From positions 1 to 64,000 of the forward strand of contig JAZDJU010000031.1 of NCBI GenBank assembly GCA_043803685.1: a stretch of DNA of 64,000 nt. Direction: 5' to 3'. Below, piece after piece: positions 3,715-40,188 of this stretch (position 1 is the first letter of the stretch; the number at the start of each line of letters is the position of its first letter). The DNA is from Candidatus Omnitrophota bacterium (GTDB lineage: Bacteria; Omnitrophota; Omnitrophia; Omnitrophales; Aquincolibacteriaceae). Position numbers and translations under genes: made by a program. The notes under the pieces were generated by a model. It saw only the letters and a list, made by a program, of their open reading frames with translations. It was not told where the DNA came from and ran no database searches.

Positions 3715-5805
3715 TTAATGTTTCCGTAAATAGATCCCGGAAATAACAATAGAAAGAATGAACCGGACAAAGAGGATCAATTCCTCGATCGTCGTAAGAA
3801 AAACACGCGCATAGTTGATCCTGAGCACATCGCCCCGTCGCCAGGAGATCTTCACGCTTTCCCAAAATTTCTGGAGGGGCTCGCGAGTCGCGGTGAGGCG
3901 AAGCGAAAAAAGATTCAACTTGTTCATCTTGATCTGGAACCGCGAAGGAACCCGGAACCGGTAAATATTCTTCTTCTCAAGCGCCGTAGCGGCTTTCTGA
4001 TAAAGAAGAAAAAGCTCCGAGGTCCGGAGATTTCGCCATTCCTTCGCGCACTGGGTCAGCCGCGCGATCTCCGAGATCACTTTCTGTTCAAGCGGTCCCC
4101 TTTTACGCGTGGCAAGCCAGACCTCTTCAAGTTCCAGAGTAAGCTCCCATCGGCCTTTCATACTGCGCAAAGTATCCCAAAATCTCCGTTTGAAATAGAC
4201 CCAGCGTCCCTCGACCGGATAACCTGTTCGGCGCTCGAGCCGGTCCTTCAATCGGAAAAAACCGCTGATCATCGGATGCCCGCCTTCAACATCAATCGAG
4301 TTCTTGTACCACATAAAATTTGAAAAAATACCCCAGTAATTATCCCCCTTGAGCTCCCGGTGCAGGATCTTCTTCATGTTTTCCGTGCTGTAAAAGGTCT
4401 TCCAGGCGGCCTCGTAGGCGGCAAGCCACTCTCCCGGTTTCATCCGCGGATGACGGTGTGTTTCATGGAACGTGTCGTAATTATTGAGGTCCGCGTCCAG
4501 AAGCATCCCCTTCTCAAGAGCCTGTTTATAATCCATGGCGCCCGGAAGCGGCGTCATCATGAAAAAAGATGCCTGCCCCGCGCCAAAGGACATCAATTTC
4601 TCGATATCCTGCTTCACCGATTCCACCGTATCGAGAGGAAATCCGATGATGTAGGCCAGGTGACAAACGATGCCCACCTCATGGAAAGAATCCACGAGCT
4701 TTTTGAAATTCTCGATGTCGTTCTGGTTTTTTTTCGCGGCCTTGAGATTCTCCTGGTTCAAGCTCTCCATCCCAATGAAAACCTGCCGGCAACCCGCGCG
4801 GGCGGCCTTCTCAACAAAATTCGGCACCGTATGGGCCTGGGTATCCAACTGCATCATGAAATGGAACGGGATCCCCTCTTTTTCCTTCAACTCGATCAAC
4901 CGGTCGAGGATCGTCTCCCAGTTCTTATGACGGCAAAAATTGTCATCGGTGAAAAAATAATGGGAGATCTGGTGACGACGGTATCCCTCGCGAACCGTTT
5001 CGATCAAAAGCTCGACATCGCGGAACCGCATCTTGCGTCCCTGAACGTTGATCACGGTACAGAAACTGCACCCGAAAGGACATCCCCTGCCGCAATCGAG
5101 AGTCCCGAAATGCTGAAGCGCGTAATGTTTTTGGTGTTTGGGATTAATGCGCGGGAACGAGGCTTTGGAAATATCGGGAATATCGTTCAGAAAATTATAA
5201 ACGGGTTTGAGCTTGCCCTGGATCGCGTCCTTCAACATCAACTCCCAGTGCCCGCCCTCGGCTTCCCCCGCCGCAAGGGACACCCCCGCGTTACGAAGCG
5301 TCACAAGCTCCGGAGAAAGATCGGGCAAGGTCGCCATTACCCCGCTCACATGGAACCCTCCTAGCAGGACTTCGACCCCTGCCTGACGGAATTTCATCGC
5401 GATATCGGACGCACGCGGCATCTGGTTAGACTGTACCCCGACCAGACAGATCACCGTCTTGGTGCCGGCACAATGACTTTCTTTAATGATCTTCTGATAA
5501 GGGATCCCCTGGACCGTATCGTCAATCAGCGTAATCTCCCAGATGAGGTCTTTGCCGAGAACGCCGCGTTCCCGGACATCCTCACTCAATCCATTCAGAC
5601 AGGAAAGTGTATTGCTTGGGAGCACTCCCTTCCAGTAACGAATGACATATCCTTCGTCGTCATACTTGGAGGGTTTGATCGGAAAAAGATGGAGGCGTTT
5701 GTACTTGTGAGGCCTCCCCCCGGCACACGTCGCGCCCGACGCCTCGGAGGGAACATCCGAAGAACAACAAGACCGGAGAGATACGGGATTTTCCTGAATT
5801 TGCAT
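3715..5805 (-). CDS. B12-binding-type radical SAM protein, 696 aa
   Basis: 'GRGCPFGCSFC' motif; 'LLGGFHVS' and 'GEAE' B12-domain motifs; 'FTDDNF', 'IGMES'. Confidence 0.85.
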   Translation of the reverse strand: MQIQENPVSLRSCCSSDVPSEASGATCAGGRPHKYKRLHLFPIKPSKYDDEGYVIRYWKGVLPSNTLSCLNGLSEDVRERGVLGKDLIWEITLIDDTVQGIPYQKIIKESHCAGTKTVICLVGVQSNQMPRASDIAMKFRQAGVEVLLGGFHVSGVMATLPDLSPELVTLRNAGVSLAAGEAEGGHWELMLKDAIQGKLKPVYNFLNDIPDISKASFPRINPKHQKHYALQHFGTLDCGRGCPFGCSFCTVINVQGRKMRFRDVELLIETVREGYRRHQISHYFFTDDNFCRHKNWETILDRLIELKEKEGIPFHFMMQLDTQAHTVPNFVEKAARAGCRQVFIGMESLNQENLKAAKKNQNDIENFKKLVDSFHEVGIVCHLAYIIGFPLDTVESVKQDIEKLMSFGAGQASFFMMTPLPGAMDYKQALEKGMLLDADLNNYDTFHETHRHPRMKPGEWLAAYEAAWKTFYSTENMKKILHRELKGDNYWGIFSNFMWYKNSIDVEGGHPMISGFFRLKDRLERRTGYPVEGRWVYFKRRFWDTLRSMKGRWELTLELEEVWLATRKRGPLEQKVISEIARLTQCAKEWRNLRTSELFLLYQKAATALEKKNIYRFRVPSRFQIKMNKLNLFSLRLTATREPLQKFWESVKISWRRGDVLRINYARVFLTTIEELILFVRFILSIVISGIYLRKH

Positions 5806-5842
5806 GGGGGCGGATTATACCCCATCTTGAGAGGGACTACTA

Positions 5843-6173
5843 GTACAGCTTCAAGATTGAAATTTTTAGGTGACGCAATTTCAATCTGCTCTATGGACTG
5901 TACCGTTCACTGAAAAAATCAAACTTGAAACGGTGCTAGCACTGCGTCAATATTGATTTTACGGGTTCGTAATGCTGCCCAAGTCTTTATTTCTTTTCAC
6001 TAATGGCGACTTGGACTGCACTGACTTTAATTTAAATTAAGGGTAGTCAGCGCTGCCCCCAATCTCAACTTTGTTTCGATTAATAAGAATTGGGACTGCA
6101 CTGATTTCCGATCATTGATTAATAAAAATCAGGTGTTGCACCGTGTACCCGTAAAAATAAAGTGACACGGCAC
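5843..6173. repeat. Tandem hairpin array, copy A (8 units); candidate structured ncRNA
   Basis: Abutted inverted-repeat units 5843-5898, 5900-5936, 5939-5975, 5977-6016, 6018-6053, 6055-6096, 6098-6136 and 6138-6173, separated by T or TA; inverted homolog at 10554-10832. Confidence 0.85.
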
Positions 6174-6203
6174 TACAAGAGTTCCAGCTTGGAAGCTACT
6201 GTG

Positions 6204-6238
6204 ATTATATTGAAATGGGTTTTGTCCCTCAGTATAAT
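6204..6238. promoter_or_regulatory. Overlapping divergent sigma70-type promoter elements
   Basis: Plus strand TTGAAA (6210-6215), 17 bp, TATAAT (6233-6238) upstream of the response regulator; minus strand TATAAT at 6204-6209 pointing into hairpin array A. Confidence 0.55.
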
Positions 6239-6330
6239 GCCCCCATTCAAGTTGCGGAAAATTTTGCTTTTTGAAAGGATCATCGAAACGCTACTCTGGA
6301 ATAACTGGACCGCTAAAAATGGAGATGCTC

Positions 6331-6735
6331 ATGCCGAAGAAAGTTTTAGTCGTGGATGATGATTCGGATCTTTGCGAACAGCTCAAGACGGAAATCGCAG
6401 AGCAGCTAGGCTGTGACGTCGATATTGCCTTGAACGGGCGGGATGCTGTCGCGATGTTCTTCGTCTCGAGAGTGGAGCAACCTTACGATCTCATTCTCCT
6501 TGATATCAAAATGCCCGTCTTTGACGGCAAGAAAGCTCTCGACGTTATCCGAAAGAACGAAGAGCTTCAAGGGGTTCTTTTGGGGCATGGGGTTCCGATC
6601 ATTATGTTAACGGGAGTGACTACGGGAGTGCCTGATACCTTCTATGAAGGTTGTGACGATTACGTGACCAAACCGTTTAAAACTGATTTTTTGATCAAAA
6701 AAATAGCAGAGCACCTAAACCGCAAAAAGGTTTAG
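6331..6735 (+). CDS. Single-domain response regulator (REC)
   Basis: 'VLVVDDD', 'DLILLDIKMPVFDG', 'IIMLT', 'YVTKPF'; GGAG RBS before ATG 6331. Confidence 0.9.
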   Translation: MPKKVLVVDDDSDLCEQLKTEIAEQLGCDVDIALNGRDAVAMFFVSRVEQPYDLILLDIKMPVFDGKKALDVIRKNEELQGVLLGHGVPIIMLTGVTTGVPDTFYEGCDDYVTKPFKTDFLIKKIAEHLNRKKV

Positions 6736-6879
6736 CACCTTATTTCCGGTCGCGCAGGGCTGGGAACCTATTCCGGCGGGGCATTAAAGCATAGGGCTTA
6801 CCATGTCGTTCTATAATCGGGGCAAGCTATTCCTGAAATAGCTTTCAAAGAGAATTATCCCTGAGGAAGGAGCGTGAAA

Positions 6880-7261
6880 ATGTCACAAGAGGGTTCCGGG
6901 ATGGGCGCGGTGGAACACAAGACGCAGCCTTTCAAGAAATGTCCTTGTTGCTCGTTTGTATGGGACAATGAAAATGATTTTTTGAGTGACGCCAACATCG
7001 AGATCATGGGCGATCCTGTTTTTTTTTGAAAAAACGAAAAAGAATTTTTTTCTTTTTAATCATAAAATCTGTCAATCATCATTGACGGTTCTAACCTTTG
7101 GGTTTACCAGCCTTCGAGAGGACTTGGCAGAAGCATTATCGTGGGCTGAACGTCCCTCTTACTGTTTATATCCAGAAAGCATGGAAGGCTGTTCCCCGCG
7201 ATGCGATTGTTCCCATCTTCAGAAAATGGCCCAACGCATAAGAAATTGGCCCAAAAAATAA
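6880..7261 (+). pseudogene. Cys-rich protein frameshifted in a T9 tract
   Basis: RBS GAGGAAGGA; ATG 6880 reads 'FKKCPCCSFVW...FLSDANIEIMGDPVFF' then TGA at 7027; removing one T from 7019-7027 joins it to 'EKTKKNFFLFNHKIC...CDC...RNWPKK*'. Confidence 0.65.
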
Positions 7262-7270
7262 TTTTTCCAG

Positions 7271-10553: not shown

Positions 10554-10832
10554 GTCATTTAGACCTTACAAAGAAGCGGTAGTCTAAATGAACTAGTACC
10601 GCATGACAATTAAAATTAAAGGTATGCGGTACAGTACTTGATTTTCATTTACAAGAATTACCGGAAATCAGTGCAGTCCCAATTCTTATCAATCGAAACA
10701 AAGTTGAGATTGGGGCAGCACTGACTACCCTTAATCTAAAATAAAGTCAGTGCAGTCCAAGTCACCCCTCATGAAAAGAAATAAAGACTTGGGCAGTACT
10801 GTTAACCCCTAAAATTAAATCGACAACAGTCC
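10554..10832. repeat. Tandem hairpin array, copy B (7 units); candidate structured ncRNA
   Basis: Units 10554-10593, 10596-10632, 10634-10674, 10676-10716, 10718-10753, 10755-10794 and 10796-10832, joined by A or TA; reverse complement aligns with 5939-6173. Confidence 0.85.
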
Positions 10833-11212
10833 TAAGCCGTTTCGTCAAAGCCCCAATTGGCGTGCAGGAAATACTTTTTGATCTCGGTCTTATGTTCTTT
10901 CATCCGGAACTGGAAATTGGCGATCCCCCCCTGAGGCAAATGGTCCGGCTCGGTCGGGACACTGGTCCCCAGAAGGGGGACCTGGTTCTTGTCGAAAATC
11001 ACGAGTTGCGCGCGGATATCCTTGATCGGATGTCCGATATTGTTGATGACGATGCCCTGGAGGGATGCGCCTTCTATTTCGTTGTAATGAGTGCTGGCGC
11101 CTTTGATGATCACTTCGCGCGGCAACTTCTGAAAATTCTCGATCTCTGGAAAGGATTCGATCCCCCTGGCCCCTCGGTATGATGTTTTCTGTCGCTTATA
11201 GAAACGGCCAAT
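10832..11212 (-). CDS. FxLYD-domain-like protein (start uncertain)
   Basis: 'GIVINNIGHPIKDIRAQLVIFDKNQVPL...LPQGGIANF' FxLYD-type Ig fold; no canonical start after the upstream gene's stop (ATT possible). Confidence 0.55.
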   Translation of the reverse strand: MGRFYKRQKTSYRGARGIESFPEIENFQKLPREVIIKGASTHYNEIEGASLQGIVINNIGHPIKDIRAQLVIFDKNQVPLLGTSVPTEPDHLPQGGIANFQFRMKEHKTEIKKYFLHANWGFDETA

Positions 11213-11225
11213 GGGGCTACAACCT

Positions 11226-12698
11226 TCACAGTATTTTTTGGATCTCCGCTTCGGCCTTGGGATCCGCTTCCGGGGCCAGACTTTCGAGGAACTGTTCGAA
11301 TTCATCCTCCAGGGCGAGATAGGGCACGGGCTTGAGCCCGGTAATTCGCTCGATCGTATCGAGGGTCTTCAGGTCGAACGGGTCGCACATCGCGATCCTC
11401 ACAGAACCTTCGGAAACCCCGATCGGGACCGCGCGATGATGAAAGATGAATTCCGCGTTAAAAAGATGGAAGATCGCAGGGTCCGGAGTCCACCCTTTCA
11501 GGCAAAAGTAAGGGATCTTGAGCTTCTTCTCAAGCATCTTTCCTACGTCCTGACTGGAGATAAGATTCATATCGATCAAAGTCTGACCCAGACGACGCCC
11601 CGTCTGGAGGTGCTCTTTAAGGGCTTCGGCAAGCTGGTCTTCGGTGATCAGCCCCGTACTGACCAGGACCTGCCCGAGCGGATCCACGCGTTTCCTGGGC
11701 TTGGCGGGTTTCAACTCCGGCTCCAGGATATGGACCGCTTCATCGAGCTTCTTGATCGGTGACGAGCGACGGTCCTGAAGATAATGACTCCCCGGCTGGC
11801 TTTTGAGATAAGTTTTGACCTCGGCGGCGTCCTGCGCGATCTCACGGAAATTCGCGTAATTCCGGTAAAAATTGGTACAACCGGCCACAGAACAGGACAT
11901 AAGCGGAAAATTCTCCATTTTCCCGCGCCGGTTCTCCACGCGGATAAAACCCGCCTCCCGGTCCGTCTTGTTGTAATAGGTGGGAATGATCCGGTCAAAA
12001 TCATCGATAAATTGACGCGCATAGACCTCTTCAAACTCCGCCGGAAGCACCACGATAAAATCGTCCCCTCCAATATGCCCGACGAAGCACTCCCCGTCCC
12101 GTGCCACGGCGTGACTCGTCCCCACAAGGATCCGGGCGGTCTGGAGAATGGCCTCATCGCCTTTCTCGAAGCTGTAGTGATCGTTGAAAGCCTTGAAGTT
12201 GTTGATATCGATGTAAAGGACCGAGAATTTCTCGCCCGCCTGGATTTTCTTCAGAACGATCTTCTCGATCGCGTGACTGCCTGGAAGATGCGTGAGCGCG
12301 TTGGCCTCCACCCGCTCCGTTGTTTTTGCGATGTTCAGGTTCACGCGCAACTGGAGCACGAGTGGGCTGAACGGCTTCACCAGAAAATCGTCGAAGCCCT
12401 TTTCGTGGCCGAGCATGAGCTCCGTCAATTTGTGCTCTTCGGTGATCATGATGACCGGGACCGACATCAGGTGAGACCGGGAACGGATGATCTGGATGAG
12501 GGATTTTCCGGACACGGGTTCCATGTCACTGGAAAGGAGGATCAGATCGAGAACCTCGCGGTCAAGAAACCTCAGGACCTGACTGCTCTTCGAGGCTTCA
12601 AAAACCTTATGGTGGCGGGAGTGAAGACGCATCAGGATCAATTCACGGGTCACAGGGTCCTTTTCGGCGACCAGGATCCGCTTTCCCTTGTCTCTCAT
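11226..12698 (-). CDS. Pseudo-receiver / GGDEF / MshEN fusion protein
   Basis: REC lacking the phospho-Asp ('LILLSSDM'); 'YIDINNFKAFND' and 'HIGGDDF'; tandem MshEN motifs 'PLGQVLVSTGLITEDQLAEAL..H' and 'RLGQTLIDMNLI'. Confidence 0.85.
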   Translation of the reverse strand: MRDKGKRILVAEKDPVTRELILMRLHSRHHKVFEASKSSQVLRFLDREVLDLILLSSDMEPVSGKSLIQIIRSRSHLMSVPVIMITEEHKLTELMLGHEKGFDDFLVKPFSPLVLQLRVNLNIAKTTERVEANALTHLPGSHAIEKIVLKKIQAGEKFSVLYIDINNFKAFNDHYSFEKGDEAILQTARILVGTSHAVARDGECFVGHIGGDDFIVVLPAEFEEVYARQFIDDFDRIIPTYYNKTDREAGFIRVENRRGKMENFPLMSCSVAGCTNFYRNYANFREIAQDAAEVKTYLKSQPGSHYLQDRRSSPIKKLDEAVHILEPELKPAKPRKRVDPLGQVLVSTGLITEDQLAEALKEHLQTGRRLGQTLIDMNLISSQDVGKMLEKKLKIPYFCLKGWTPDPAIFHLFNAEFIFHHRAVPIGVSEGSVRIAMCDPFDLKTLDTIERITGLKPVPYLALEDEFEQFLESLAPEADPKAEAEIQKIL

Positions 12699-13525: not shown

Positions 13526-13541
13526 TAGAACCGGACCAAGT

Positions 13542-13592
13542 TCCACGCCCCACGGGCCACGAAAACGTGGTGCGTGGCTCGTGGTACGAGGC
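13542..13592. repeat. Inverted heptamer repeat cluster (CCACGNN / NNCGTGG)
   Basis: ttccacgccccacgggccacgaaaacgtggtgcgtggctcgtggtacgagg; the same family recurs at 18.8, 24.0-25.1 and 46.2 kb. Confidence 0.7.
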
Positions 13593-13597
13593 CCCCT

Positions 13598-14455
13598 TTA
13601 TTTAGTTTGCCACTCATACGCGAGGAGAAGATTTTCCATAAGCATGGTCACGGTAAGCGGTCCGACGCCTCCCGGCACCGGCGTGATAAAACCGGCTTTT
13701 TTGACCGCCTCGTCGAATTCGACATCGCCTTGAAGTTTTCCGTCAACTTCTGTCGTCCCAACGTCGATCACGACCGCGCCCTGTTTGATCCACGCGCCTT
13801 TCACAAGCCCGGGTTTACCCGAACACGCGATCACGATCTCGCTTGCACCGACAATTTTTTTCATATCCTCTTCGCCCGTCCCGGTATTACAAACAAGCGT
13901 GGTCACCCGAGCTTCGCCCAACAATAGCTGAAGCGGACGGCCGACGATGGCACTTTGGCCGATAAGCGCCGCTTTTTTCCCGCGGAGCATAATGCCGCTC
14001 GCTTTAATGAGCGTGTAAGCCGCGAACGCCGTGGGCGGAATCAGTTTGCCTCGCCGGAGCACGATCAGTCCAAGACTCGTGGGATGAACACCCTCCACGT
14101 CCTTCTTTGGATCCATGGCAAGCAGGACTTTGTCGGAGTCGATCCCCTCCGGAAGCGGCATGGAAATAAAAAGTCCGTGAACTGTTTTATCCGCATTGAT
14201 CTCCTGGATCTTCTTGAGTAGCGCCTTTTCGCCCTTGACCTGATCGGGCATAATTCGCTTGAAATGGATCCCCAATTTTCCGGCCAGTTTCTCCTGACTG
14301 TTGATATACCAGACCGCCGACGGATCTTCGCTCGTCTGGATCGCAGCCAGAGATGGCGTCGGCAGCCCCGCTCCCGTAAAAGCTGCTATTTTCTGGACGA
14401 TCTTTTCCTGCAAGTCCGCCGCGATCGCTTTCCCTTCAAGTCTCTTCGCTTCCAC
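13598..14455 (-). CDS. folD: Methylene-THF dehydrogenase/cyclohydrolase
   Basis: 'KKDVEGVHP', 'SAIVGRPL', 'VIDVG', 'GDVEF', 'ITPVPGGVGPLTVTML'. Confidence 0.93.
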   Translation of the reverse strand: MEAKRLEGKAIAADLQEKIVQKIAAFTGAGLPTPSLAAIQTSEDPSAVWYINSQEKLAGKLGIHFKRIMPDQVKGEKALLKKIQEINADKTVHGLFISMPLPEGIDSDKVLLAMDPKKDVEGVHPTSLGLIVLRRGKLIPPTAFAAYTLIKASGIMLRGKKAALIGQSAIVGRPLQLLLGEARVTTLVCNTGTGEEDMKKIVGASEIVIACSGKPGLVKGAWIKQGAVVIDVGTTEVDGKLQGDVEFDEAVKKAGFITPVPGGVGPLTVTMLMENLLLAYEWQTK

Positions 14456-18014: not shown

Positions 18015-18903
18015 GAAGGATCTGGATCATGGTTTCAAGCGCCCGCGTGAAAGTCACGGGCGTCGGAGAGCAGAAGAGGTCGGAATTCACGAACACGATA
18101 CGGTTCCCGCGCGCGGCCTTGAGTTCCGGATATTTTTCCCACATCCGTTTTTCCTTTTCGCCGTCAAAACCCATACTCGAAATAATGATCATGTCCGGGT
18201 CCTGCGAAAGGACCTTTTCCCGGGAATAGATCGGCCGTTCCGCGTCCGCAGCGATATTCTTCCCGCCCGCGAATTCGATCAGGTCATTCAGAAAAGAATT
18301 CCGCGTCACCGTCACGAGCGGTTCGGATCCCACCTCGAGGAACACCGAGATCGGAGGCCCTTGCGGGACCTTCCGCCGCAGAAGTTCAACGGCCCTCGTT
18401 TCGTCCTCGATGATCTTCGCGGCTTCCGCTTCCCTGCCGATCATTCCCGCGAGCCGGAGGAACGTATCGCCCACCCCCTTGAAATTTTTCGCCGGCGCGA
18501 ACGTTTCCACCCGGAGCCCGAGCGCTTTCATTTTCGCGACCGCCCGGGGATCGATCATCGGCGTCACGATCACAAGGTCCGGCACAAGCGACACCACCTT
18601 CTCAAGATTGATCTCGACGATGCTCCCCGCTTCGGGGATCTCTTGGACTTCCGCGGGCCGGACACAGAAGCGCGACCGCCCGACCACGCGCTTCCCTTCG
18701 CCCAAAAGGAACAGCTCCTCCGTTACCACCGTCGAAAGCGAAACAATGCGCTGGAGCATTCTTGGGCCTTCACTAGAAGCGATCGCACTTCGGGAAATGA
18801 AAACCACTGGGGTCATTAGGATCATGCAGAGCGCAACGCACAACGCGCAACGTTTTCGTGGCTCGTGGATCGTGGATCGTTGCACTTTTCTTTCAGACTT
18901 CAC
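17995..18903 (-). CDS. btuF: Cobalamin-binding periplasmic protein (BtuF-like)
   Basis: 'RIVSLS..VTEELFLLG', 'INLEKVVSLVPDLVI', 'FAGGKNI'; operon context. Confidence 0.85.
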   Translation of the reverse strand: MKSERKVQRSTIHEPRKRCALCVALCMILMTPVVFISRSAIASSEGPRMLQRIVSLSTVVTEELFLLGEGKRVVGRSRFCVRPAEVQEIPEAGSIVEINLEKVVSLVPDLVIVTPMIDPRAVAKMKALGLRVETFAPAKNFKGVGDTFLRLAGMIGREAEAAKIIEDETRAVELLRRKVPQGPPISVFLEVGSEPLVTVTRNSFLNDLIEFAGGKNIAADAERPIYSREKVLSQDPDMIIISSMGFDGEKEKRMWEKYPELKAARGNRIVFVNSDLFCSPTPVTFTRALETMIQILHANYPH

Positions 18904-21826: not shown

Positions 21827-24129
21827 TTGGTTCCGATCACAAATTCCCGCGAAGCCCCTGGATCGACAAAGGTGTAGGTCCCGGCAGGGTAAATGGCCGT
21901 GCCGAACGAAGTGGCGTTAATGGCACGCGAGTAGTACTTCTCATTGAACACGTTATTCACTTTCAGATAGACCTGCTTGCCGCGCCAGTCGTACGAGAGA
22001 ATAAGGTCCCAGACCGAGTAGGGCTTGATCCAATGCCCCGCCCCCCCGGTCGTATTCAAAGTCGCCTGGGTCGCCGTCTCATAAGAGGTCGGATGCTGTT
22101 GTCCGGTAATGGTACCGTACAACCCCGCTTTAAGTCCCTTATAATTTTCGCCCAAACGGGCGAGCGGCGTGACCGTGATCCCCGTCGTGAAACGGTTCTC
22201 GGGAACCTGTCCGAGGGCCCGGCCGTCCTTCAAACTTTCGGCGCCGTCCGTTTCGCGGACAAAAGCCTTGGTGAACGTATAACTGCCGTAGAGCTTGACC
22301 TCTTCGACCGGCGTCACGTCCAGGCGCGTCTCGATACCGTAACGACGGGTTTTGGACACATTGATGTTCCGTCCCCACGGTGTTGCCGCGCTGATGGCTG
22401 TGCTGTCGTAGCGGATCTCATCTTCGACATCGATGAGAAAATAACTCAGCTTGCCCTCGGCGTACTTCCCCGCCCGGAGCCGGGTACCGGCCTCGTAGCT
22501 ATTGGACAGTTCCGGCGTCAGAGGCGTAAGCGATGTGCCCCCGTAGGGCGCGAGCTCGGTGATCGTCGGAACGCGGAAGCCCTGGGAATAATTGGTAAAA
22601 AGATCCACGCTCTTGACCGGCTTGACGGTGACGCCCGTCGAGACCGTCGATCTGTTCCAACGGTTCGTTTGTCCGGCCGCGCGATTCAATCCGCTCTGGG
22701 ACGCGAACCAGTTGTAATCGTGCCGCATACTGACGTACGGGATCACCTTGTCAAAAAATTTGAGCGTCTCGTTCCAGAAAAGCGCGACGTTGTCGGCCTG
22801 AGCGGTCCGGTCCGTGCGAGTGACGGGATTCGAAGGCACCGTGCCGTTCGGAGCGTCTCGTTGGATCGACCAATTGCGGCCCGCCCGGTATTCCATCCCC
22901 AGCAGGCTCTCGTTCCCGAGCCAGCCCCACGTGTCCTGATAACGGGTCTGCCACGTGAGGTCCCGCTCCTGGTTCTTGGTGTTCAGAAGCGACGTGTAGG
23001 GATTGTATCCGTAAGAAACAAAGGTTCCCGTCGTGTTGACAAAACTGATGTCGTTCCAGCGTTCGCTCGCGAGGATCGAAGCCAGGATCCGGTCATCCCA
23101 GAACTTCTTTTCGGCGCCCACCTGGACGATCGTGTTCTTGAACTTGCGGCCGTCCAGAGGCTTGTTCGTGCGCCGGTCGTCATCCTGATATTGCTGAAAG
23201 GTCATTTCCCCCGGCATCGAGACCGCGTCCTCGATATGCTTCAGCCCAAAGGAGATCTTCCCCTGGTCCTCGGGCAGCTCATAAGCGGTCTTGATATCGA
23301 ACGAGGTCAGCCGGAATTCACTATTCGGACGAAAGCCGTGTTCGTCATCGCGTTCGCCGTTAAAATAATACCCCAGCTTGCCGCCGAGGGGCGTCAGCTT
23401 GTCCTTCAAGGTTCCGCTCATGCCCTGGTTGAACCGCAGTCCGTGGAAACTCGTCCATTCCAGTCCGCCAAAAAGATGGACGGGCTTCTCGCTCGGCTGC
23501 CCCGTCGTGACATGGACCACGCCGCCGAACGCGTTGCTCCCGTAAACGGACGAAGCCGACCCTCGGTCGATCTGCACCGACTGGGTGTCGCGCATCCGCA
23601 TCAAAGGAAAATTGACACTATTGCCGTCCACTTCGTTCACACGAACGCCGTCCACCAGAAAGATGACCGTGCTGGGGTCCGTAAAACCGCGAAGGGCAAA
23701 GGTCGTGTCGAGCCCGTTCCCCGTGGAATCGTAAAGAACCACGCCTTCCGAATCCCTCACGGCGTCCTGAAGAGTGTCGGGTTTGATCGTGTCCAGGGAA
23801 GTCGCGTCCTTAAAGGTCACGTTGAAAGGAACGTCGGAGATCTTCTTGCGGAAACTCGGGATCCTGGAAGCCACGACTGTCACGTCAGCCACGGGCTGCG
23901 GCGGAGGACCCTTAACTTCCGTCTTCGAATCGGTGGACGCTTCTGTGGTAACAGCCGCCGCTTTTCCGTCCGTCTGACTTTGTTCTTTTTCCGTGGCACT
24001 TGGCTCGTGGTCCGTGGCACGGTTTTTAGAGAACGGCCAGCTCCAGCCGATGTTCAGAAGGCAAACTGCGAGGAACAGAATACTGATCTTCCGAAGATGC
24101 TCGCTCCGGATCTTTTGTTTTGTGGACAC
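21811..24129 (-). CDS. btuB: TonB-dependent receptor, probable cobalamin receptor
   Basis: TonB-box-like 'DVTVVAS', plug 'LRGF...LVDGV...GSASSVYGSNAFGGVV', barrel ending in aromatic residues; lies under a cobalamin riboswitch; start uncertain (GTG 24129). Confidence 0.85.
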   Translation of the reverse strand: MSTKQKIRSEHLRKISILFLAVCLLNIGWSWPFSKNRATDHEPSATEKEQSQTDGKAAAVTTEASTDSKTEVKGPPPQPVADVTVVASRIPSFRKKISDVPFNVTFKDATSLDTIKPDTLQDAVRDSEGVVLYDSTGNGLDTTFALRGFTDPSTVIFLVDGVRVNEVDGNSVNFPLMRMRDTQSVQIDRGSASSVYGSNAFGGVVHVTTGQPSEKPVHLFGGLEWTSFHGLRFNQGMSGTLKDKLTPLGGKLGYYFNGERDDEHGFRPNSEFRLTSFDIKTAYELPEDQGKISFGLKHIEDAVSMPGEMTFQQYQDDDRRTNKPLDGRKFKNTIVQVGAEKKFWDDRILASILASERWNDISFVNTTGTFVSYGYNPYTSLLNTKNQERDLTWQTRYQDTWGWLGNESLLGMEYRAGRNWSIQRDAPNGTVPSNPVTRTDRTAQADNVALFWNETLKFFDKVIPYVSMRHDYNWFASQSGLNRAAGQTNRWNRSTVSTGVTVKPVKSVDLFTNYSQGFRVPTITELAPYGGTSLTPLTPELSNSYEAGTRLRAGKYAEGKLSYFLIDVEDEIRYDSTAISAATPWGRNINVSKTRRYGIETRLDVTPVEEVKLYGSYTFTKAFVRETDGAESLKDGRALGQVPENRFTTGITVTPLARLGENYKGLKAGLYGTITGQQHPTSYETATQATLNTTGGAGHWIKPYSVWDLILSYDWRGKQVYLKVNNVFNEKYYSRAINATSFGTAIYPAGTYTFVDPGASREFVIGTKWEFW

Positions 24130-24167: not shown

Positions 24168-24285
24168 GACCTGTCTTGACCTCTGCTCGGAGGCATTAGA
24201 ATGATGAGCCACGATCCACGCCCCACGTTCCACGAATTCTGCTTCAGTTTTCGTGGCCCGTGCAACATGGCCCTTGGCCCGGTTT

Positions 24286-24453
24286 TAATGACAGGTTTGA
24301 TATTCTGACTAGGTAAGTATTAGCCTACTCGCGAGCCTTCCCTTCCCTTTCGGAAAAGTGGCTATTCGCTTTCGTCCTTACCGACAGCGGCGGCACCGTG
24401 GAGTCGTTTCGCCGAACTTCGGCGTCACGCTCACTTCCCAATGCCTGTCATTA
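24286..24453 (-). promoter_or_regulatory. Cobalamin riboswitch
   Basis: Minus strand: P1 taatgacagg/cctgtcatta, GGGAA, 'gccgccgctgt', 'gccact...gggaagg', B12-box-like 'agtcagaa'; upstream of btuB and cobQ. Confidence 0.88.
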
Positions 24454-24609
24454 CGTTCCCTCAAAACAAAAATTATTTCGAGGGAACTTTTTCAAAGAAA
24501 CCCTTCGCTTTAGCTCTGGGTAAGTGGGCCGGAAATTACCCGCCCCCTTAAAGAACAACCAACAACACGCGGATTATACTCACGAACCCCCACACCACAA
24601 CAAAAAAAA

Positions 24610-24720
24610 GGGGCTCCCCACTCCAAGACCCGGTTCTAGAACCCGGTCTTGGAAGGGGTTCGCTGATCTGTCATTGCGAAGGAGTCCGCCGAGATTTGTG
24701 GCGGACGACTGCGGCAATCT
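24610..24720. repeat. Two adjacent REP-like palindromes
   Basis: ggggctccccactccaagacccggttctagaacccggtcttggaagggg (near copy at 36076-36124), then gtcattgcga...gcaatct. Confidence 0.7.
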
Positions 24721-24806
24721 GCTTTGAGCCAATCCCGTGCCACGTTCCACGACCCACGCGCCACGTTTTTCCGTGGTCCGTGGCTCTTGGCCTGTGGCTC
24801 CGTTCT

Positions 24807-26138
24807 CTAATTATCTCTCACTCTCATGGCGAAGCCGCGTTCCACCAACTTCTGATTTACATAGACGCTATTAATGAAAACATCCGCCAGGTAACGGTCA
24901 TACTTGTCCGACTTGGAGGTTTTGACCAAAACCTCCGTTCCACGTTCCACGACCCACGCTCCACGTGCCTGCCCTTCACCCTTGTCCCCATTTTTTCCCG
25001 TGGACCGTGGCCCTTGTCCCGTGTCCCTGTTTTTCGTGTCCCTTGGCTCGTGGCTCGTGTCCCCATTTATCATTTGTTCTAAAAATACTTTCGCCTCCTT
25101 CCCTTCCTTGCTCACCATCTCCGGCGCGTCAATGCCGCGCAGGCGCAGCGTCTGCACGCTCCGCACACCGAACCCCAGGTCCACCACCGCCTTCACCGTG
25201 TCGCCGTCCAGCACTTCGATAATGGACGCGCGGTACGTGTAAAGGTCGTCCGCCGTGCGCTTCGAGAGTTTGATCTTGTCTGAAGGCGACGAACCTTCCG
25301 GCATCGCGAACAAAGCTTCAATGATCGCCCCTTCCTTGAAACCCAGAGGTCGCGACGTCCGGTAATAGTTCGAGAACCCGAGATCGATCACCATTTTCCC
25401 CACCTCAGGACCCACAGTCGCCTTGACCATCCTATAAGTCCCGACTTTCCCCAGCTTCGCCGTGAGCTTCTCCTCCACGACCACGGGCGCCGTGACTTCA
25501 CCCTTCGCCTCCTTGCGCCGTTTCACCTCTTCACGGATTTGATCGCGATTCCAATTTTCTTTGGCAGCTTTCTCTGTAAGCTCGTCACGGTCCTTAGAGT
25601 CATTCACGGCAAGAAGCTCCCGGTAATCTGACCAAGTCAACTTCCCCGCATGCGGGGAAATGGGGTACGCCCTGGCGAATTGGAGCATATACCCCAATTC
25701 CGTGTCACTCACGCCCAGGTCATTCGCAAGCCTGAGAAGCACCTGCTTCCCATAATCCGCTCTTTCCTTGTGCTGAAGCACATGCTCGTCAATGAGCTTG
25801 CCGATCTCCCAGTTCTCGCGCACCTTCTCTTGCGCTACCGCCTGCTCCACCCGTGCCTGACTCTCCCCCCTCGCCTTCCGAATCGCCGCCACCAGTTGGT
25901 CGTAAGTCGTTACGGTCGCAGTAGACGATTGTCCTACGGTCACAGTAGACGCCTGTTCGCCAACTACTTCCGGCACGTCCTTCTGAAGAACTTGAGGAGT
26001 GTCCTGTGGAACCACCTGCGGAGAATCCGTTTGTACTACCTCCGGAGCGTCAAGTGGGAGCGTCTGCTCCTCCGCCCTCAACGCGCCCGACGCCCCAAAA
26101 ACCAGAAGAAATAAGATAACCGTCAGTTTCGTTTTCAT
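24807..26138 (-). CDS. Signal peptide + DUF1016(YhcG)-N + thermonuclease (SNase) fusion
   Basis: 'WEIGKLI...RADYG...LANDL...FARAYP...LTWSDYRELL' and 'VLDGDT...LRLRGIDAPE...DKYDRYLADV...VNQKLVERGFA'. Confidence 0.85.
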   Translation of the reverse strand: MKTKLTVILFLLVFGASGALRAEEQTLPLDAPEVVQTDSPQVVPQDTPQVLQKDVPEVVGEQASTVTVGQSSTATVTTYDQLVAAIRKARGESQARVEQAVAQEKVRENWEIGKLIDEHVLQHKERADYGKQVLLRLANDLGVSDTELGYMLQFARAYPISPHAGKLTWSDYRELLAVNDSKDRDELTEKAAKENWNRDQIREEVKRRKEAKGEVTAPVVVEEKLTAKLGKVGTYRMVKATVGPEVGKMVIDLGFSNYYRTSRPLGFKEGAIIEALFAMPEGSSPSDKIKLSKRTADDLYTYRASIIEVLDGDTVKAVVDLGFGVRSVQTLRLRGIDAPEMVSKEGKEAKVFLEQMINGDTSHEPRDTKNRDTGQGPRSTGKNGDKGEGQARGAWVVERGTEVLVKTSKSDKYDRYLADVFINSVYVNQKLVERGFAMRVRDN

Positions 26139-36075: not shown

Positions 36076-36124
36076 GGGGCTCCCCCTTCCAAGACCGGGT
36101 TCTAGAACCGGGTCTTAGAAGGGT
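36076..36124. repeat. REP-like palindrome (copy of 24610-24658)
   Basis: ggggctcccccttccaagaccgggttctagaaccgggtcttagaaggg. Confidence 0.75.
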
Positions 36125-39845: not shown

Positions 39846-39875
39846 CGACAGGGTCACCTCGGATGGAAAAAAGAG

Positions 39876-40028
39876 TCGGGGTAGTAGGATTTGGCTCCTT
39901 CGGCTTTCGCCTCCGGTAGGCCACCCGCCCTTAGAAACGCAACGTCTGTTGCGTTTCCAAGCAAGGGCTCCCTTCAAATCCTACTAAACCGAAGGGGCAG
40001 GGTTCGCTTTTCGCTTACCCAGTCCCGA
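39876..40028 (-). repeat. Structured element ending in an 18-bp copy of the tRNA-Pro 3' end
   Basis: 39876-39893 is identical to 40060-40077; internal complement at 39975-39986; nested hairpins. Confidence 0.7.
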
Positions 40029-40059
40029 TACTCCTTAATACTTCTTTTCAAAATAGAAA

Positions 40060-40116
40060 TCGGGGTAGTAGGATTTGAACCTACGGTCTCTACGTCCCGA
40101 ACGTAGCGCGATACCA
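40060..40116 (-). tRNA. tRNA-Pro(CGG), 3' three-quarters only; 5' end disrupted
   Basis: tggta-tcgcg-ctacg-ttCGGga-cgtag-agacc-gtagg-ttcaaat-cctac-taccccg-a; no matching 5' acceptor or D strand upstream. Confidence 0.75.
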
Positions 40117-40188
40117 CACCAACTCTCTATGAGTTGGTGCGGCCCGTCACGCAATTTGAAATTGCTTGCGGGGTCGAAAACGGCGGGG

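Follow-up and report, generated by a model that had tools for sequence, protein, structure and literature searches.

Nested insertion of short hairpin elements probably accounts for a six-hairpin intergenic array in a Candidatus Omnitrophota genome

The pneumococcal BOX repeats (boxA-boxB(n)-boxC) and the enterobacterial BIMEs are composite intergenic repeats in which fixed outer hairpin modules enclose inner ones that vary in number. REP units are defined by a GTAG head, and insertion sequences of the IS5 group duplicate YTAR target sites. MITEs, according to the working definition in one account (PMC3119063), have inverted terminal repeats, often show a target duplication and are too short to encode a transposase. 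The same account describes MITEs, PATEs and SMRs of Haloquadratum walsbyi that are nested in one another, with 192 targeting events. For REPINs, PMC3116915 reports that changes on the two sides tend to compensate.

We analyzed an array of six hairpins in a 64,000-nt stretch of DNA from a Candidatus Omnitrophota bacterium (contig JAZDJU010000031.1, positions 1 to 64,000; the window). The hairpins, each about 40 nt long, lie in a 525-nt gap between a gene for a 696-aa radical-SAM-type protein (3715..5805, minus strand) and a gene for a receiver-only response regulator (6331..6735, plus strand). Their stems comprise 8-10 bp, their loops are A/T-rich and about 20 nt long, and short GCAG-type linkers join them on the minus strand, on which units 1 to 6 are read. 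This array, copy A (5940..6172), is a composite in which an outer two-hairpin element, class I, is split by two nested two-hairpin modules. Unit 1 (6139..6173), with the stem CCGTGT/ACACGG and a half-profile match spanning 6137-6175, is the left inverted end of class I, and unit 6 (5939..5977) is the right inverted end. Units 2 (6099..6135) and 5 (5978..6015) are the first and second hairpins of the outer inserted module, u2+u5. Units 3 (6056..6095, TCCCAAT...ATTGGGG type) and 4 (6019..6052) are the first and second hairpins of the inner module, u3+u4. Unit 5 combines a variable stem with a conserved A-rich loop and is the unit type with the widest dispersal. A second six-unit composite in the window, copy B (10597..10831, plus strand), has the opposite orientation and a mean column identity of 84% to copy A.

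The initial annotation of this locus had drawn attention to complementarity between hairpin loops, and a direct reading of the sequence bore this out. In copy A, the unit-1 loop contains acccgtaaaa (6147-6156, plus strand), the exact 10-nt reverse complement of ttttacgggt (5957-5966) in the unit-6 loop. In copy B, 8 of 9 positions are complementary between plus-strand attaaaggt, from the unit-1 loop, and acccttaat, from the unit-4 loop. An ACCC...AAA loop start had also been assigned to units 4, 5 and 6, with an inverted form in unit 1; alignment supported it for units 4 and 6, while unit 5 carries it in copy B and lacks it in copy A. We compared loop 1 with mononucleotide-shuffled versions of loop 6 (29 elements, 50 shuffles each, 1450 in total). 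The longest exact complementary run in the shuffles averaged 4.35 nt, and the run of 10 in copy A was reached in 0 of 1450; no shuffled run exceeded 8, which argues that the complementarity is not due to chance. The mean loop duplex energy was -12.7 kcal/mol for real pairs vs -4.7 kcal/mol (sd 2.1) after shuffling. Among the 29 elements, loops 1 and 6 match best in copy A and worst in copy B (-2.9 kcal/mol, longest run 4). The loops of units 1 and 6 are necessarily reverse complements because the two halves of class I are inverted copies, and the match between units 1 and 4 in copy B arises because the loops of units 4 and 6 are related and share one orientation. The complementarity of the loops is thus the inverted-repeat relation of a single element's ends, which inserts have moved 160 nt apart.

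Without inserts, class I consists of unit 1 followed directly by unit 6, a non-coding imperfect palindrome of about 83 bp that begins with CTAGTAC and finishes with GTACTAG. In a manual count, 27 of 42 consensus positions, and 15 of 17 positions in the loops, agreed between unit 1 and the reverse complement of unit 6, so that the element has the terminal inverted repeats of a MITE. Copy A gave 55 matches in its own 2.89-Mb assembly. Five were near full length, at 83-87% identity: the two in the window and one each at C98:61511-61736, C61:10347-10569 and C123:5438-5624 (prefix C, contigs of this assembly). Iterative BLAST within the genome identified approximately 110 loci totaling 10,972 bp, or about 0.4% of the genome. 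Their lengths cluster near 85, 165 and 245 nt, equivalent to two, four and six hairpins, and two kinds of two-hairpin element of about 85 nt, class I and class II, are prominent. Elements of these sizes (about 83, 165 and 245 nt) are too short to encode a transposase, and the array itself occupies an intergenic gap between ORFs.

Profiles of the half-elements yielded 66 matches that formed 28 paired elements, or 29 with copy A included. Class I is unsplit in 17 copies (gap of about 0), has a short 33-nt insert in one, takes a four-unit form (1-2-5-6; gap 79-82 nt) in six and takes the six-unit form (1-2-3-4-5-6; gap 160-161 nt) in five, copies A and B among them. Comparison of unit order across homologous arrays, a check proposed with the initial annotation, showed the same order in all five six-unit copies.

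We examined the sequences flanking these elements. Copy A is bordered by CTAG on the unit-6 side (5936..5939) and by CTAC on the other side (6173-6176), a match to CTAG at 3 of 4 positions; from their sequence, we take these flanks to be a decayed 4-bp target-site duplication. Copy B has CTAG on the unit-1 side (10593..10596) and CTAA on the unit-6 side (10832..10835). The latter reads TTAG on the minus strand, where its TAG is the stop codon of a 157-aa ORF (10832..11305). The flanks of both copies thus match at only 3 of 4 positions. Identical 4-mers, mostly CTAG, flanked both ends in 16 of the 27 scorable class I copies of this genome. The left 4-mer differed from CTAG in 12 copies, and the right end repeated the variant in seven of them (CCAG, CTAA twice, TTAG four times). 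Other genomes added the flank pairs CTGA/CTGA, TCAG/TCAG, CTAA/CTAA and CTAC/CTAC. Class I therefore shows the target-site duplication often seen with MITEs, and a 4-bp duplication fits better than duplication of TA because the flanks repeat in direct rather than inverted orientation and TA is missing from several of them.

Orthologous loci in congeners revealed empty sites. At the copy B site, the gene of 157 aa closes with a single (C/T/A)TAG, directly followed by TTCGTYTAAGC, in 8 of 17 congener loci; in this genome the gene end and TTCGTYTAAGC are parted by TTAG, the six-unit array and CTAG. In another eight of the 17 loci, this tetranucleotide is the site of different hairpin inserts, and one locus was not comparable. 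At the copy A site, the junction is uninterrupted and of the ...CCATTCCTAG type in 8 of 16 congener loci, where a single CTAG directly precedes the radical-SAM gene. One congener (G006) carries a class I element of 83 nt at this position, bordered by CTAG at either end, and another (G011) has a diverged two-hairpin element. The site in our genome holds the array, a solo hairpin and more inserted DNA that includes the response-regulator gene. The solo hairpin (5900..5934, minus strand), a seventh hairpin that adjoins the CTAG, is a half-element of class I type and resembles the second hairpin of the G006 element (L162). Elements are thus present at some and absent from other orthologous sites at both the copy A and the copy B positions. 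The response-regulator gene and the region between it and a hemY-like gene (6736-7270) are missing from the junction in most congeners, which indicates a larger insertion at the copy A locus besides the array.

A flank coincides with the stop codon of a neighboring ORF in 15 of 29 class I copies, as judged with crude gene calls. CTAG is approximately six-fold under-represented in the genome (1774 observed vs 11,233 expected from base composition), and TAG is the rarest stop codon in the crude gene set (494 vs 943 TAA and 932 TGA). We also noted a 48-nt palindromic repeat centered on TCTAGA, with 90% identical copies at 24610-24657 and 36076-36123, that may be another CTAG-centered small mobile element.

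The inner modules occupy defined positions. The center of unsplit class I reads ...GGTACAG/TACTGTT, with the slash at the point where modules enter. In the four-unit form, a u2+u5 module of about 80 nt sits exactly at this center between two CAGs, and in the six-unit form the u2/u5 junction holds u3+u4, again with a CAG on each side. Free-standing, CAG-flanked copies of u2+u5 occur at C122:8203, C37:182003, C47:26957 and C104:16220. A free-standing, CAG-flanked u3+u4 occurs at C114:3559-3650 and is 95% identical to that of copy A. In other genomes, two-hairpin modules lie in the opposite orientation at the same class I center (L027, L044, L088, L125). Since the modules are also found free-standing with their own direct repeats and in either orientation, we favor nested insertion over tandem amplification. 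A 3-bp duplication accompanied 13 of 19 inner-module elements, a weak claim because the 19 class II elements were curated by eye from 67 regular-expression hits that were mostly false and because every unit junction has a YNG as well.

The second hairpin of class II has a conserved loop and a stem that changes completely between copies. In some class II elements (C92:18816-18924, C79:47350-47441, C79:43520-43604 and C37:184466-184570), the sequence just before the element repeats its 3' stem half, with up to 12 of 12 nt matching (C92:18836). We considered whether the variable stems had been copied from the target and judged a truncated tandem copy upstream to be more likely.

The earlier suggestion that homologous modules had been assembled in either orientation agrees with these data: unit 6 is an inverted unit 1, unit 4 has the orientation of its relative unit 6, and inner modules are found both ways elsewhere. 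Its description of the array as a recombinase-built mosaic holds in part. The modules are real, and as their builder, transposition with target-site duplication and nesting fits better than cassette shuffling.

We conclude, with a probability of roughly 0.8, that the array is DNA-level debris of nested transposition and not a dedicated RNA gene. The elements constitute a new MITE-like family, probably one of Omnitrophota. In the model we propose, class I would insert at the rare CTAG (a YTAR-like target) and duplicate 4 bp. The insertion site would often be the TAG stop codon of a gene, which the duplication would regenerate. The palindromic center of class I, with its CAG/CTG, would serve as a hot spot for two-hairpin modules of about 80 bp. 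Entry of u2+u5 into this center would create the four-hairpin form, entry of u3+u4 at a CAG between u2 and u5 would create the six-hairpin form, and the latter would then have been copied whole via its outer ends to reach five sites, including those of copies A and B. We infer both this order of nesting and mobilization, by a cut-and-paste or a copying route, by a DDE-type transposase acting in trans.

We searched 20 genomes for an autonomous element with matching ends, using PF01609 besides Y1_Tnp, and found none. DDE_Tnp_1 genes are present in 8 of the 20 genomes of the genus, and ten DDE_Tnp_1 loci of the genus contained no half-element match (E at most 0.01). The only well-scoring DDE_Tnp_1 element in our genome (C110) has unrelated inverted ends. 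The MITE feature that was not seen in this search is thus a relationship between the ends and those of an autonomous insertion sequence. Pairs of distant half-elements 1.4-3 kb apart (C37, C72, C75) were considered as a possible autonomous partner and rejected, as they enclose ordinary genes and no transposases.

Alternatively, a Y1/HUH transposase (a RAYT or an IS200/IS605 TnpA) might read the hairpins as single-stranded DNA and copy them in a REPIN- or PATE-like manner, without true duplication, and CTAG and CAG would then be target or cleavage motifs. Class I has the architecture of a REPIN, as described in PMC3337134 and PMC3116915, in that two inverted palindromic units could form one long hairpin. 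This long fold-back was the minimum-energy structure, or close to it, in the four elements we folded, and it is nearly isoenergetic with the two-hairpin conformation. The stems covary, the loops are conserved, and the genome encodes three Y1_Tnp (RAYT-like) proteins above the Pfam cut-off, one of them with a class II element 140 nt upstream of its gene. However, none of the three Y1_Tnp genes is flanked on both sides by hairpin units, and one of them (228 aa, C72:67082-67870) is bracketed instead by perfect 27-nt inverted repeats that occur three times in the genome and are unrelated to the units. The GTAG head is absent. The direct repetition of variant 4-mers at both ends, the two flanks covarying, corresponds to duplication from a staggered cut, unlike HUH transposition and unlike PATEs as PMC3119063 defines them. 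We therefore regard a REPIN-like mode of movement as unlikely.

We next consider the structures of the elements. The minus strand of copy A has a folding energy of -84.8 kcal/mol (z -6.84); in this fold, the two 10-mers pair in a helix that encloses four hairpins. The plus strand of copy B also folds well (z -6.44), and its minimum-energy fold lacks a loop 1-loop 6 helix. The opposite strands of copies A and B gave z-scores of -2.2 and -3.3, compared with -6.8 and -6.4 on the strand with GTCC...GGGC motifs. The strand with these motifs folded better at 40 of 60 loci with RNA parameters and at 45 of 58 non-tied loci with DNA parameters, a test that is partly circular because orientation was defined by the same motifs, which contain a T.G pair.

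Pairing is maintained across the family. The end stems covary between subfamilies (ACCGCAT/ATGCGGT vs ACCGTGT/ACACGGT), with exchanges of C-G/T-A and A-T/G-C/C-G in unit 1 and of T-A/G-C in unit 6. We assembled 54 distinct class I elements, drawn from this genome, from related genomes and from metagenomes. At 17 loop-loop positions, 79.6% of cells were paired, as against 22-59% when the partner was slid by 1-3 columns and 78.2% (sd 0.4) when partners were permuted between elements; 1 of 2000 permutations reached the observed value. In the 6-bp GC core, 93.0% of cells were paired vs 90.4% after permutation, and 0 of 2000 permutations reached the observed value. Loop duplexes in our genome averaged -12.73 kcal/mol within elements vs -11.69 kcal/mol between elements (permutation p 0.005). 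Pair 27-16 occurs as G-C (34), A-T (4), T-A (1) and C-G (1), all four Watson-Crick types, and as 5 G.T and 4 A.C mismatches. The sole C-G is the ACGGGT/ACCCGT of copy A, and covariation at this pair is compatible with pairing in either DNA or RNA. An 18-nt degenerate pattern for the center matched 120 metagenome loci, of which 13 are real elements and the remainder chance matches; the 13 lie close to the consensus and added little covariation. Loss of complementarity in further homologs, to the level of shuffled controls, had been named in advance as the outcome that would count against the loop observation, and complementarity is kept throughout the family, with a mean duplex energy in the 29 elements of this genome lower than in the shuffles.

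Pairing is slightly better within elements than between them, and one pair shows all four Watson-Crick types. Selection for a fold-back form, or its templated correction as a quasi-palindrome, is therefore a likely cause of the within-element excess. The data do not single out RNA, given the small size of the effect, the relatedness of the sequences and the occurrence of both G.T and A.C mismatches.

These folds raise the question of whether the arrays act as structured RNAs, be it as small RNAs or as elements of untranslated regions, in which loop 1-loop 6 pairing closes a multi-helix junction. The fold of copy A with its closing helix, the stability of copy B, the excess of within-element pairing over 1999 of 2000 permutations and the location of both window copies near response-regulator genes would suit such RNAs. 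Other observations are at odds with this proposal. Copy B folds without the helix and shows poor pairing between loops 1 and 6, and the presence of both G.T and A.C leaves no wobble signature of one transcribed strand. Rfam 15 gave no match at the array at gathering scores, and at E up to 10 only a chance snoRNA hit (E 5.3) appeared within 5800-6340. The elements show no orientation bias relative to tandem genes, with 26 loci co-oriented and 25 opposed. None of the congeners examined has the array at the orthologous sites, and no full-length six-unit composite was found in any of the 40 other genomes searched. Matches at the level of units occurred in 19 of 19 other genomes of the genus, none covering more than about 141 of 251 query bases among the matches listed, and other genera of the family and order gave weak matches only. 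A search for sequencing runs listed six of DNA or of unknown type, each with at most 0.08 of the sampled words, and no RNA run. We consider functional RNAs quite unlikely. The specific idea in the initial annotation, that long-range loop-loop pairing folds an RNA into a higher-order shape, is not supported: other genomes conserve neither the position nor the composition of the array, its elements are oriented at random relative to genes, and copy B folds without the pairing.

We analyzed the genomic context of the repeats using crude ORF calls. Approximately 90 of the 110 loci lie outside these ORFs, in a genome that is 91% coding. Beyond the tandem contexts, 20 loci are between divergent genes, 12 between convergent genes, 7 at contig edges and 20 nominally within crude ORFs, mostly at ORF ends. 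The crude calls also include very long open frames of about 16 kb (C98:16287-32363) and 21 kb (C123:54196-75519), each with a hairpin-repeat locus inside it or at its end. An intergenic distribution, the many elements that adjoin gene ends and the combination of conserved loops with varying stems might be expected if the host had recruited the repeats as protein-binding sites, like the BIME/REP sites of gyrase and IHF, for chromosome organization or protection of mRNA 3' ends. However, closely related species differ in the presence or absence of elements at the same sites, no T run or terminator context was evident by eye in the sequences, and the data point to no binding protein. Purifying selection against insertions in genes, together with the CTAG target, explains the intergenic location equally well. 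Recruitment as protein-binding sites is thus highly improbable.

The window contains further sequence features of interest. A conserved TATAAT motif precedes the start codon (ATG) of the radical-SAM-type gene by only about 9-10 nt, here and in most congeners (GGGGTATAAT...CCCCATG; window 5806-5840, loci L156-L171), which suggests from the spacing that the mRNA is leaderless or has a very short leader. The ATG itself sits in a small GGGG/CCCC inverted repeat. A separate family of intergenic repeats, with CGTGG/CCACG words at a period of about 8 nt, is found at 13531-13599, 18852-18890, 23987-24025, 24204-24285, 24735-24805 and 24935-25068, and this family (D3, D5) clusters around a cobalamin riboswitch (24277-24478). 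A 27-nt direct repeat (39867-39893 and 40051-40077) overlaps the end of a tRNA match at 40060-40118 (59 nt, 34.9 bits) and could be a duplicated tRNA end of the kind left by an integration site.

Nested transposition probably accounts for the array, and the hairpins themselves call for comment. Single-strand structure seems to matter, because a DDE transposase acting on double-stranded ends needs neither covarying hairpins nor a loop pair. A bolder proposal is that the hairpin modules are selected as single-stranded structures and are mobilized or used by an undescribed mechanism. It is motivated by the fully compensatory changes that preserve the stem of every unit type, the conserved loops of about 20 nt, the co-variation of the end loops and the better folding of one strand. 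Such a mechanism might involve a transposase that recognizes the loops of hairpins and nevertheless duplicates 4 bp; alternatively, the composites might have been exapted as protein-sponging or regulatory RNAs near signaling genes in Omnitrophota. We give this proposal low odds.

The analysis removes a tempting false lead, a six-hairpin kissing-loop "riboregulator", and replaces it with a testable account of a split mobile element. It also describes a system of repeats that spans a genus of a phylum little studied so far, with the wider distribution resting on the rows listed for the unit-5 pattern. Of the 80 rows listed, 31 come from assemblies labeled Candidatus Omnitrophota, with many matches per genome, and matches elsewhere are single and chance-like. 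For annotation, fold-based screens will tend to take such elements for structured RNAs, and the elements can break assemblies. Their hairpin ends, which covary, hint at a role for single-strand structure in how these elements move. We searched the literature on Omnitrophota repeats and hairpins and on bacterial MITEs with CTAG duplication and found no description of this family.

We compared the family with the systems described above. It resembles MITEs in being short, non-coding and dispersed, with inverted ends, direct 4-bp CTAG-centered flanks and empty sites in relatives, and differs from them in that the search among the genus turned up no parent insertion sequence whose ends are related. 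Each class I end of about 40 nt is moreover itself a hairpin, in which the stem covaries and the loop of about 20 nt is conserved, unlike ordinary MITE ends, which to our knowledge have no need of hairpin structure. With REPINs, the family shares two inverted palindromic units able to form one long hairpin (as given in PMC3337134), compensating changes, and tens of copies per genome that persist across the genus; the direct target duplications and the lack of a RAYT gene flanked by units set it apart. Like BOX repeats and BIMEs, it draws on a small alphabet of hairpin modules with variable inner modules between fixed outer ones. Unlike in those repeats, to which it has no sequence relationship, the inner modules also stand free with their own flanking direct repeats and occur in either orientation in other species. 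The conglomerates of Haloquadratum walsbyi likewise consist of small transposase-free repeats that insert preferentially into other such repeats. They belong to another domain of life and to other families, and the target here is the palindromic center of a two-hairpin element.
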